From the NCBI GenBank assembly GCA_942490885.1, contig CALNYT010000002.1, positions 1,184,807 to 1,216,806 of the forward strand: 32,000 bases of DNA. Direction: 5' to 3'. Below, in pieces: positions 29,032 through 32,000 of this stretch (position 1 is its first letter; each line of letters opens with the position of its first letter). A model generated the notes under the pieces. The model was not told the DNA's origin. It did not search any database and was given only the letters and a program-made list of their open reading frames with translations. The stretch comes from an uncultured Clostridiaceae bacterium (lineage in GTDB: Bacteria > Bacillota > Clostridia > Clostridiales > Clostridiaceae). The translations under genes were made by a program, and so were the position numbers.

Positions 29032-32000
29032 ATGAAAAGAATGAAAAAGATATTTGTTTTAATGAGCGCTATTTTAATTACTATAGCTTTACCTTTTCAA
29101 AGTTTTGCATTAAATAATGATACAAATGTAAATATCAATCTATCAAAACTTAAAATAAATGAAATAGAGACTTTTGTAGAAAAGCAAATGAAGAAAGGGA
29201 AAATACCAGGAATGTCTGTAGTGATTGTCAAAGGAGACAAGACTATTTATCAAAATGGATTTGGGTATGCAAATATTGAAGAAGACAAAATGGTGACTGA
29301 TAAGACTTTATTTGAACTTAGTTCAAATAGTAAAGCTTTTACAGGATTAGGGATATTAAAACTACAAGATGATGGGCTAATCAATTTAGAAGATCCAATC
29401 ACAAAATATATCCCTTGGTTAAAGATGAAATATAAAGGAAAAGAAGTTGAAATAACCCTAGAACAGTTTTTTCATCATACTAGTGGAATCCCATTTAAAA
29501 GTATAGATAAGATACCAGTTACTAATGATGATGATGCACTTGAGAAAACTGTTAGAACATTGATAGATATAGAATTAGATAGCGAACCAGGAGAAATGTT
29601 TCAATATGCAACTATAAACTATGATGTATTAGGATTGGTAATTGAAAAAGTTACTGGAGAATCATATGAAAAGTATGCTGAAGATAATTTATTAAAACCA
29701 ATGAATTTAAGTAATACTCATTTATATAGAAGTAAAGATATTAAGGATGATATTGCAAAAGGATATAAAATTGGATTTTTAAAACCACAAGTATATCAAG
29801 CACCTGAATATAGAGGAAATAAACCAGCAGGATATTATATTTCTAATGGTGAAGATATGGCGAAATGGCTTAAAATTCAGCTTGGAACTTATAAGGATAG
29901 TAAATTTAATGAAGAATTGATTAAACAATCACATAATGCAAATCGAAAAGTAGCTCCATTAGGAGATGGCTCATCATATGCTGCAGGTTGGTTTGTCTAT
30001 CAAAAAGGTGGAGGAGAGATTTCACATGGAGGAAATAATCCTAATTATTCATCTTTTATAGTATTTAGTCCAGAAAAACAAATTGGAATTGCAGTATTAA
30101 GTAATTTAAACTCTGAATTTGTAGGAGATATCGGACAGGGTATAAATGAAAGATTACAGGGAAACGAATACAACACAAATACCAAAGATATGAATAAGAG
30201 TGTAAATTTGATTTCAATCTTAATCATATGTACCACAACGTTAATAATCGTAAGTACACTTTATTTTATGTTTAACTGTTTACTAGAGATTATGAAAAAA
30301 GAAAGGAAGTTTTTTAAAAAGGATATAAAGGGTATTTTAAAGAGTTTAATTTCTTTGATTTTTATAATTGGAGTAACATACTGCATTTATTTAATCCCTA
30401 ACATTTTATATATGGGAGTTACATGGGACTTTGTTTTTGTATGGTTACCTAAAACAGTGAAAATTGCACTATATCTAACTTATATAACTCTATGGGGAGT
30501 ATACATCTTTTCATTAATTACGAGTTTTTATAAAAAAAAAGGTGACAAATCAATATTAATATTATTATTATTAAGCATTGTCAGTGGTCTAGGAAACTCA
30601 CTTATAATTTTTACAATAAATATGGCCATAAACAGCAGTAATAATCTAAAGTTAAAATTGTTGGTTTATTTTGCACTTGGACTAATTCTATATGTATACG
30701 GACAAAAACTTGTAAGAGTAAAACTAATAGAAATTACTAATAACATTATTTATTCAAAACGAATGAAAATTGTTAAAGCACTATTGAAAACACCATATGA
30801 TCAGTTCGAGAATATTGAAAAAGATAGAATTCAGACAACATTAAATAATGATACTGAAAGAATAAGTGGGTTTGTAAATATTTTGATTGGTGGAGTAACA
30901 AGTGCAGTTACACTTATATGTTGTTTTATGTATTTAGGGTTTGTGAATATTTACGCATTATTATTGGCAGTAATAATGATACTTTTTATTGCGAGTATTT
31001 ACTATTTTGTAGGTAAATATGCAAATAAAGTTGGAGAAGAATCAAGGGATCTTCAGAATAAGTTTTTTAAATTTATTAATGATTTAATCGAGGGATTCAA
31101 AGAGTTAACTTTTAATGAAAAGAGGAAAAATGAGTTTCAAGTTGATATGGATGAGAGTTGTAATAAGTATAAAGTAAAAAGAGGACAATCACAATTAGCA
31201 TTTGCAAATATGTTTGTTATAGGTGAATTACTATTTACTTTAGCAATTGGAGCCGTTGCATTTGTATTCCCTTTGATATTAAAAAACCTAGATGGTACTA
31301 GTATAGCAAGTTATGTTTTTATATTGCTATATATGACAGGACCAGTACACGGGATATTAGATACAATACCCAATGCAATAGAAGTGAGAATAAGTTGGAA
31401 GAGAATTAATGATTTATTAAACACGATTGATCAAGGGGAATATAAAAAATTAGAAGAAAGAGATAGAAATATAAACAAGAAGATAAAGTTGAAATTAAAC
31501 CAAGCGGAATACGAATATAACAACAAAGAAGGGCGGAACTTTAAAGTAGGTCCAATAGATTATGAATTTAATTCTGGTGAGATAGTATTCATTACTGGAG
31601 GAAATGGAAGTGGTAAATCTACTTTGGCTAAATTAATAAGTGGGTTATATAAAACTTCAAAAGGAAATGTTACGTTAAATGATGAGAAAATTACTGAAGC
31701 AATCCTGAGTCAACAATATTCAACTATATTTAGTGATTTCTATTTGTTTGATAAGTTATATGGGGTTGATTATAAAAATAAGGAAGAAGATATTAAAAGA
31801 TATTTGGAAGTATTACAGTTAGATAAAAAGGTTGATATAGAGGATGGAAAATTTAGTACAACTAAACTATCAACAGGTCAAAAAAAGAGACTAGCACTTT
31901 TAGTTACTTATCTAGAAGATAGACCAATTTATTTGTTTGATGAATGGGCAGCAGATCAAGACCCAGAGTTTAGAAAATTCTTCTACAATACGCTTTTGCC
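29032..32000 (+). CDS. ClbP-like S12 (beta-lactamase-fold) peptidase fused to a cyclic-peptide-type ABC exporter (3' end outside window)
   Basis: Absent from the supplied track because it has no stop in the window. I translated 989 uninterrupted codons from ATG 29032 (GGAGG RBS). It starts with a signal peptide (MKRMKKIFVLMSAILITIALPFQSFA). The S12 domain has SxxK at S98-N-S-K101 (Ser codon 29323-29325), FQYATINYDVLG (YxN-like) and SHGGNNPNY (HxG). Hydrophobic helices follow from ~aa 385. An ABC TMD starts at ~aa 505. The NBD has Walker A GGNGSGKST (31597-31623), signature LSTGQ (31867-31881) and Walker B LFDEWAADQD, typical of SyrD/PvdE-type cyclic peptide exporters. Confidence 0.85.
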   Translation, partial: MKRMKKIFVLMSAILITIALPFQSFALNNDTNVNINLSKLKINEIETFVEKQMKKGKIPGMSVVIVKGDKTIYQNGFGYANIEEDKMVTDKTLFELSSNSKAFTGLGILKLQDDGLINLEDPITKYIPWLKMKYKGKEVEITLEQFFHHTSGIPFKSIDKIPVTNDDDALEKTVRTLIDIELDSEPGEMFQYATINYDVLGLVIEKVTGESYEKYAEDNLLKPMNLSNTHLYRSKDIKDDIAKGYKIGFLKPQVYQAPEYRGNKPAGYYISNGEDMAKWLKIQLGTYKDSKFNEELIKQSHNANRKVAPLGDGSSYAAGWFVYQKGGGEISHGGNNPNYSSFIVFSPEKQIGIAVLSNLNSEFVGDIGQGINERLQGNEYNTNTKDMNKSVNLISILIICTTTLIIVSTLYFMFNCLLEIMKKERKFFKKDIKGILKSLISLIFIIGVTYCIYLIPNILYMGVTWDFVFVWLPKTVKIALYLTYITLWGVYIFSLITSFYKKKGDKSILILLLLSIVSGLGNSLIIFTINMAINSSNNLKLKLLVYFALGLILYVYGQKLVRVKLIEITNNIIYSKRMKIVKALLKTPYDQFENIEKDRIQTTLNNDTERISGFVNILIGGVTSAVTLICCFMYLGFVNIYALLLAVIMILFIASIYYFVGKYANKVGEESRDLQNKFFKFINDLIEGFKELTFNEKRKNEFQVDMDESCNKYKVKRGQSQLAFANMFVIGELLFTLAIGAVAFVFPLILKNLDGTSIASYVFILLYMTGPVHGILDTIPNAIEVRISWKRINDLLNTIDQGEYKKLEERDRNINKKIKLKLNQAEYEYNNKEGRNFKVGPIDYEFNSGEIVFITGGNGSGKSTLAKLISGLYKTSKGNVTLNDEKITEAILSQQYSTIFSDFYLFDKLYGVDYKNKEEDIKRYLEVLQLDKKVDIEDGKFSTTKLSTGQKKRLALLVTYLEDRPIYLFDEWAADQDPEFRKFFYNTLL

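Follow-up and report, generated by a model that had tools for sequence, protein, structure and literature searches.

A probable ZmaM-type fusion of a ClbP-like peptidase and an ABC exporter in a nonribosomal peptide gene cluster of an uncultured Clostridiaceae bacterium

We analyzed a stretch of 32,000 nucleotides (nt) from an uncultured Clostridiaceae bacterium (contig CALNYT010000002.1, positions 1,184,807 to 1,216,806), hereafter called the window, and in particular the gene that runs off its right-hand edge (29032-32000, forward strand, +). This gene very probably encodes a ZmaM-type bifunctional membrane protein of a nonribosomal peptide synthetase (NRPS) biosynthetic gene cluster. The protein carries a peptidase and an ATP-binding cassette (ABC) half-transporter in one chain, shares the diagnostic residues and the fold of ClbP, is homologous to ClbP and ZmaM, and is paired with a ClbN-like NRPS module in its relatives as well. 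It probably exports an inactive antibiotic precursor and then removes the protective cap. The original prediction, made from the letters of the window, had proposed a ClbP-like D-asparagine (D-Asn) peptidase fused to an ABC exporter, and the residues, the fold and the hidden Markov model scores all fit that proposal.

Reading frame and domain architecture of the fusion protein

The gene was delimited by its open frame, its identity to a full-length protein and its Pfam and NCBIfam domains. Translation of the window gave 989 stop-free codons from ATG 29032 to the window edge, as expected from the earlier claim of one uninterrupted frame, and no stop or frameshift was found between the peptidase and ABC parts. 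The full-length protein P0001 is 100% identical to the in-window fragment and has 1024 amino acids (aa); only 35 codons (105 nt) of the gene lie beyond the window, and these hold the end of the ATPase domain, including the H-loop. ATG 29032 is the first possible start because the same frame contains several stop codons within the 50 codons upstream, and a ribosome-binding site read from the sequence, AGGAGG (29016-29021, +), lies 10 nt 5' of it. The program-made list of open reading frames (ORFs) misses the gene because it runs off the window edge, which agrees with the remark that it lacks an in-window stop. The G+C content of the window is about 29%, and the closest relatives of the fusion protein in the homologue search were all from Clostridium species.

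The chain begins with a signal peptide (aa 1-26; 29032-29109, +), called from hydropathy and charge, as had been claimed; it comprises the start MKRMKK, a hydrophobic core at aa 7-25 and a putative cleavage site between SFA and LN, where the AlphaFold2 model is of low confidence (aa 20-35). The extracytoplasmic S12 serine peptidase domain follows (aa 27-386; 29110-30189, +), supported by PF00144, the ClbP alignment, family invariance and Foldseek. Next comes a ClbP-type three-helix transmembrane (TM) domain (aa 387-499; 30190-30528, +), recognized by the phmmer alignment to ClbP, the model helices and the Lys/Arg-rich loops. The type I ABC exporter TM domain of six long helices (aa 508-800; 30553-31431, +) was assigned by PF00664, TIGR01194 and the model, and the nucleotide-binding domain (NBD), of which aa 819-989 fall in the window (31486-32000, +), by PF00005, its motifs and invariant columns. 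All the family models named in the original prediction matched: Pfam Beta-lactamase (PF00144) at aa 46-362 with an E-value of 3.7e-68, ABC_membrane (PF00664) at aa 509-768, ABC_tran (PF00005) at aa 841-973, and the NCBIfam model TIGR01194, "cyclic peptide export ABC transporter", at aa 509-989 with 314.9 bits, above its cutoff of 286.2.

In the hydropathy profile, the signal peptide is followed by a hydrophilic domain (about 365 aa), then by three TM segments and the ABC permease. The AlphaFold2 model, built with 62 homologues (mean pLDDT 80.9, pTM 0.67), showed helices at aa 387-421, 432-453 and 474-499, then the six long ones and an alpha/beta NBD. Hydropathy and model thus both contain the extra TM helices and the six-helix permease that had been claimed. 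The cytoplasmic-side loops hold eight Lys/Arg at aa 422-437 and four at aa 497-507, which by the positive-inside rule puts the peptidase on the outer side of the membrane and the NBD in the cytoplasm. The predicted position of the peptidase outside the cytoplasmic membrane, which bears out the proposed outward-facing topology, has a helix parity consistent with a cytoplasmic NBD.

The NBD contains Walker A (GGNGSGKS, 856), the signature LSTGQ (946) and Walker B (IYLFDE, 966), the latter overlapping the LFDEWAADQD stretch that the original prediction had read (968-977), and the H-loop THD at 1003 lies past the window end in P0001. K862, D970, E971 and H1004 were invariant in 62 sequences. By hand alignment, the Q-loop Gln seems to be replaced by Ser-Asp in IFSDFYLF (aa 900-903, window 31729-31740); the family keeps F900 and D902 without exception, and TIGR01194 proteins in general probably share the replacement. 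The C-terminal half (aa 509-989) resembles exporter half-transporters of the TIGR01194 and YojI type (PRK10522), although its score against PRK10522, 285 bits, is well under the YojI equivalog cutoff of 604. Unlike such exporters, the fusion adds an N-terminal extracytoplasmic peptidase and three TM helices. The nearest solved ABC relatives were Sav1866, MsbA, YheH and ABCC2, at about 70-78 bits.

Diagnostic residues and relatives of the fusion

A sequence search of the PDB with the peptidase returned Staphylococcus aureus Flp, an FmtA-like protein (235 bits, soluble domain only), and full-length ClbP (227 bits), after which the third-ranking match fell to 147 bits and AmpC-type enzymes to 76-81 bits. 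With phmmer, full-length ClbP aligned over aa 44-477, through the third TM helix (TM3), at 34% identity (E 2.4e-66). Foldseek placed four full-length ClbP entries at the top, with TM-scores of 0.86-0.91 relative to ClbP; Flp (PDB 4GDN) has the S12 fold in common, at a TM-score of 0.89, a comparison that covers the soluble domain, the one part in its solved chain. None of the 50 best Foldseek matches listed covered both halves of the model, and the top query-normalised TM-score was 0.40.

Prodrug-activating peptidases have the catalytic residues S95, K98 and Y186 and a strictly conserved N331, with Ser or Thr at position 188 in place of the Asn of the S12 family at large, and His or Asn at position 257 (ClbP numbering); E92 of ClbP orients N331, and W460 and W466 are strictly conserved in the linker between TM2 and TM3 (PMC9889268). 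In the pairwise alignment, ClbP E92, S95, K98, Y186 and S188 correspond to E95, S98, K101, Y192 and T194, and H257, N331, W460 and W466 to N263, N336, W465 and W471, the two Trp keeping the same spacing of six residues. The claimed S98xxK101 motif and the Ser/Lys/Tyr triad therefore match ClbP residue by residue, and the claimed HGG was found as H332-G-G334. The "YxN-like" motif had been misread: it is Y192-A-T194, and YxT instead of YxN is a hallmark of prodrug peptidases. E95, S98, K101, Y192, N263, N336 and W471 were invariant in 116 full-length fused homologues, in which position 194 was Thr in 111 and Ser in 5, and position 465 was Trp in 115. The diagnostic residues were also largely kept in 140 cluster representatives.

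At the equivalents of ClbP positions 188 and 331, Flp has Asn and Leu, respectively; the residue test therefore tells the two top matches apart, and a Flp-type protein was rejected on these two positions. The expected grouping with ClbP rather than with ordinary penicillin-binding proteins (PBPs) and beta-lactamases was likewise upheld by the bit scores, the Foldseek ranking and the complete set of D-Asn residues.

The first homologue search yielded 550 matches; of the best 120, nearly all were proteins of 998-1051 aa with the same three domains. They came from Clostridium (C. tagluense, 72% identity; C. botulinum; C. beijerinckii), Bacillus, Brevibacillus, Paenibacillus and others, most of them named "cyclic peptide export ABC transporter"; the fused homologues from Brevibacillus and Paenibacillus shared 50-56% identity with the fusion protein. 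The 116 full-length fused homologues (998-1051 aa) were collinear with it and had no gap at the junction, aa 495-510. An exhaustive search with the peptidase and three-TM part alone gave 1655 cluster representatives (50% identity) at E <= 1e-30. Among the best 150 of these, 49 were fused (at least 950 aa), 91 were stand-alone (430-580 aa), as exemplified by a Sporosarcina peptidase with three TM helices (L007), and 10 had other lengths. Fused and stand-alone forms were interleaved in a rough neighbor-joining tree of cluster representatives, which suggests about 31 switches between them, a count that we do not trust because the distances are saturated and some "stand-alone" entries are possibly fragments. 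Full-length fused homologues were also seen in metagenome-assembled genomes (MAGs) of Bacteroidota (L006, 9998-13072; L005, 198-3248), at 41-42% identity; a published phylum survey names only Firmicutes, Proteobacteria and Actinobacteria (PMC9889268). A second copy, encoded outside the window on the same 5.27-Mb contig (P0068; 749 aa, 88% identical), looks like a decaying paralogue: its peptidase runs straight into the middle of the ABC permease (SILIIC joined to QFENIEKD), so that it lacks the three-helix domain as well as the first helices of the ABC part, and its C-terminus is truncated too.

Among the named systems, ZmaM of Bacillus cereus and B. thuringiensis has the same chain layout of signal peptide, S12 peptidase, three TM helices and ABC half-transporter. 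In tblastn, the protein at the ZmaM position of plasmid pBMB431 of B. thuringiensis HD-1, labelled ZmaM by its position in the annotated zma cluster, aligned over 100% of the query at 48.1% identity. Its gene order is zmaJ, a hybrid NRPS/polyketide synthase gene, an LLM oxidoreductase gene, the fusion, a HAD phosphatase gene and a gene for a 1498-aa NRPS. ZmaM, too, has an initiating NRPS as partner (ZmaO-like), composed of condensation, Asn-specific adenylation, thiolation and epimerisation domains (C-A(Asn)-T-E). However, the gene order differs, since here the NRPS is followed directly by the fusion and the zma order is ZmaM, ZmaN, ZmaO; the host, a low-GC Clostridium relative, is also unlike the hosts of ZmaM. 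The product of the cluster probably differs from zwittermicin, and in the closest relative a 5654-aa NRPS is encoded downstream.

The original prediction knew the fusion only from ZmaM, and this part did not stand. Two classes of these peptidases have been described, ClbP-like (about 450 aa) and ZmaM-like (about 1,100 aa), with EdeA, PamJ and ZmaM named as fused (PMC9889268), and PamJ has been described as an ABC transporter that also acts as a D-Asn-specific peptidase (PMC9054821). With this prior description and hundreds of homologues, the fusion is an already described and widespread class rather than a novelty; only the member is new, in a clostridial cluster without an assigned product. 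A literature search on clostridial clusters of this type found no paper. PamJ (paenilamicin) and EdeA (edeine), likened here by description and not by sequence, are fused ZmaM-like peptidases from clusters whose products are cationic polyamine-type peptides. ClbP of the Escherichia coli colibactin system shares the peptidase fold and three-helix TM domain, the catalytic triad, the D-Asn-binding residues and the linker Trp, and has the stand-alone relatives XcnG and AmiB beside it; its partner NRPS, ClbN, has the same domain order as the NRPS here. In contrast to the fusion with its ABC half, ClbP stops after TM3 with no transporter attached. Further differences are His257 of ClbP against Asn here, Ser188 against Thr, and K235, which has no aligned Lys. 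ClbM is a MATE-family protein. As it is the precolibactin transporter (PMC9889268), the statement that peptidase and transporter are separate proteins in colibactin was correct.

Partner NRPS, proposed mechanism and rival explanations

Directly 5' of the fusion gene lies a gene for a 1493-aa initiating NRPS of the ClbN/ZmaO type (24400-28881, +), with a starter condensation domain followed by Asn-specific adenylation, thiolation and epimerisation domains, assigned by Pfam, NCBIfam (including TIGR01720), motifs and the pocket code. Its motifs include HHIIADG at 133 (condensation), LGGDSI at 984 (carrier) and HHLIVDGVSW at 1171 (epimerase), and its C-terminus reads PIIEWF, ERHGRE, RTIGWFTSMYP and FNYLGEF, which we take to be core motifs of the epimerisation domain. 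The specificity pocket of the adenylation domain, read by GrsA numbering, is DLTKIGEVGK, the Stachelhaus code for Asn. All ten pocket residues are identical in the NRPS at the ZmaO position, which is 45% identical to the present one, and in three Clostridium relatives. This code is counted among the Asp/Asn codes (PMC12283262), and a homologous initiating module of the ClbN/ZmaO type builds the N-acyl-D-Asn motif (PMC8264950). The upstream NRPS is thus predicted, from its domains and pocket, to be a ClbN/ZmaO-type initiating module and the maker of an N-acyl-D-Asn cap.

The same pairing was found in relatives. In C. tagluense (L020), whose 72%-identical locus stood in for the sequence past the window, the order is a 4'-phosphopantetheinyl transferase (PPTase), a type II thioesterase, the C-A-T-E NRPS, the fusion and then the 5654-aa NRPS. 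The NRPS-fusion gene pair also occurs in C. cavendishii and Clostridium sp. UBA6640, and the loci that show the pairing include L002, L004 and L006; in L006, a Bacteroidales MAG, the fused homologue lies directly 3' of a 2434-aa NRPS with a terminal thioesterase domain.

In the proposed mechanism, the upstream NRPS would build the N-acyl-D-asparagine cap, and the remaining assembly line, encoded downstream of the window, would extend the product on this cap to give an inactive cytoplasmic "prodrug". The C-terminal ABC half-transporter would then export the precursor with ATP, presumably as a homodimer because each chain has one TM domain and one NBD. On the outward side of the membrane, the N-terminal S12 peptidase, anchored by its own three-helix domain, would hydrolyse the amide bond after D-Asn, with Ser98 as nucleophile assisted by Lys101 and Tyr192, and with Thr194, Asn336 and Glu95 reading the D-Asn side chain, so that the active compound would be released outside the cell. 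The substrate, the direction of transport, the homodimer and a physical coupling of export to cleavage are the predicted elements of this scheme.

Several points weigh against this reading. The peptidase activity, the substrate and the product are predictions, the topology is predicted from hydropathy and homology, and the remainder of the cluster lies outside the window. By sequence, Flp scored marginally above ClbP (235 against 227 bits), and Flp is not known as a prodrug peptidase. ClbP K235, which pairs with E92 in a salt bridge, falls on Ile241 in the alignment; Lys243 lies nearby but is not aligned with it. We know of no fused member for which direct coupling of export and cleavage has been demonstrated. 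In the literature, the role of ZmaM was put forward as a hypothesis, "not tested experimentally" (PMC8264950).

We weighed three other explanations. The N-terminal domain could be an ordinary beta-lactamase, PBP or DD-peptidase on a multidrug exporter, acting in beta-lactam resistance or wall remodelling with no prodrug role. Its Pfam label is "Beta-lactamase", NCBIfam models of class C beta-lactamase, AmpH and PBP4B match it with E-values of 1e-24 to 1e-29, and the ABC part also matches the multidrug transporter model PRK10522. However, the beta-lactamase, PBP and AmpH models stay far under their cutoffs (bla_class_C, 102.3 bits against 415, so that membership in the class C or AmpC family failed), and AmpC structures score about a third of what ClbP does. 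Moreover, Thr194 replaces the Asn of the S12/AmpC YxN motif, the prodrug-specific N336, E95, W465 and W471, invariant or (W465) nearly so in the fused homologues, are present, and the C-A(Asn)-T-E NRPS was always beside the fusion gene at the compared loci. On these scores, residues and context, an ordinary beta-lactamase or PBP was rejected as very improbable. Even less credit, practically none, is due to an assembly or sequencing artefact that merged adjacent genes for a ClbP-like peptidase and an ABC transporter. Stand-alone peptidases of about 500 aa with three TM helices are indeed common, as the 91 among the 150 closest representatives illustrate, but the frame is continuous across the junction, and the gapless alignment recurs in 116 independent homologues from many genera. 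The two parts meet in a short cytoplasmic loop rich in Lys, whose parity is right, three TM helices and then six, and AlphaFold2 modelled this junction with confidence. Because the 116 homologues are collinear, we rejected a mis-joined gene pair.

The remaining explanation accepts a real prodrug peptidase fusion, with an ABC half that pumps out the mature product for immunity or is a mere scaffold in the membrane, and with another transporter to export the precursor. We consider it unlikely, though less so than the two above. In its favor, no experiment assigning a substrate to the ABC half of any fused member was found in the literature, ClbP-type systems work with unrelated transporters (ClbM, PMC9889268), and the interleaving of fused and stand-alone forms in the rough tree implies that the two functions are separable. 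Against it, the catalytic motifs of the NBD are family-invariant, which argues for an active pump, and the ABC half falls within the TIGR01194 cyclic-peptide exporters, above the cutoff. In addition, the stretch from the PPTase gene to the fusion gene holds no further transporter gene, in the window or in C. tagluense, and hand-over of the substrate is the simplest explanation for the order of outside peptidase, TM helices and exporter.

As a genomic marker, the fusion reliably points to a "prodrug" NRPS cluster; in this window it shows where an uncharacterised cluster begins, in a relative of Clostridium and thus in a group with little-explored secondary metabolism. Blocking the peptidase, by the S98A mutation or with ClbP-type boronic acid inhibitors, should make the capped precursor pile up, a proven way to the product. 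The physical coupling of export and cleavage is a question for the whole ZmaM-like family rather than for this member, and the gene raises no new mechanistic question; a PDB search returned no structure spanning both halves of ZmaM-like proteins.

Neighboring genes and other loci in the window

Upstream of the NRPS gene, and overlapping its start by 11 nt, lies a type II thioesterase gene (23703-24410, +; PF00975, E 3.9e-38), which has the same position in L004 and L020. It is preceded by a gene for a transcription regulator with a helix-turn-helix domain and tetratricopeptide repeats (22154-23482, +; Pfam HTH_3 and TPR repeats), of RNPP/PlcR-like architecture, and by the Sfp-type PPTase gene (21186-21881, +; PF01648, PF22624), placed as in C. 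tagluense. A 57-aa ORF (23476-23649, +) overlaps the last codons of the regulator gene, begins with MLKKLLVGMLSVMIIGVGFNG and has a signal-peptide-like N-terminus. The layout of the regulator and this ORF resembles pairs of a regulator and its pro-pheromone such as PlcR-PapR, which suggests, by analogy, quorum-sensing control of the NRPS cluster.

A wider proposal, which we hold tentatively and at slightly less than even chances, is that the cluster makes an undescribed non-ribosomal peptide capped with N-acyl-D-Asn in a psychrotolerant-type Clostridium lineage (closest to C. tagluense), under the control of this in-cluster RNPP-type quorum-sensing pair (22154-23482 and 23476-23649). If so, the fusion protein would export and activate a new antibiotic from an anaerobe.

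The genes 3' of the fusion gene in two relatives were also inspected. L004 (13122-15081) has a PALP enzyme and an ornithine-cyclodeaminase-like enzyme, a pair that looks like an SbnA/SbnB-type route to 2,3-diaminopropionate, and L002 (13164-17499) has carbamoyl-phosphate synthase subunits. Both sets of genes recall building blocks of zwittermicin-type compounds. A zwittermicin-like chemistry for the present cluster was set aside, as the downstream gene content varies between relatives and is not transferable.

In the 150 nt that separate the NRPS stop codon from the fusion gene, TTGAACTTACT ... AGTAAGTTCAA form a perfect inverted repeat (11-13 bp; 28885-28921). It is not a canonical terminator because no T-run follows; its candidate roles are attenuator, RNA-stability element and operator. 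A scan of 18600-32000 counted 88 promoter-like sites against 88.9 in shuffled sequence and 3 terminator-like sites against 2.6, no excess in either case; operon boundaries therefore cannot be drawn from it.

Just 5' of the PPTase gene lies an enterochelin-esterase-like gene (19762-20976, +; PRK10439, 200.7 bits against a cutoff of 222), which is absent at the equivalent position in C. tagluense. At the other end of the window, a row of genes (233-4558, +) comprises a radical SAM/SPASM enzyme gene (233-1477), then a 163-aa ORF that matched no Pfam family, followed by genes for a 2-phosphosulpholactate phosphatase-like protein and an MFS transporter; it may be a small locus for a ribosomally synthesised and post-translationally modified peptide or of cofactor type, unrelated to the NRPS cluster. 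A T-box leader (15266-15509, reverse strand, -) scored 107.6 bits against a gathering score of 93 and sits upstream of a class I methionyl-tRNA-synthetase-like gene (13154-15145, -), an ordinary arrangement.

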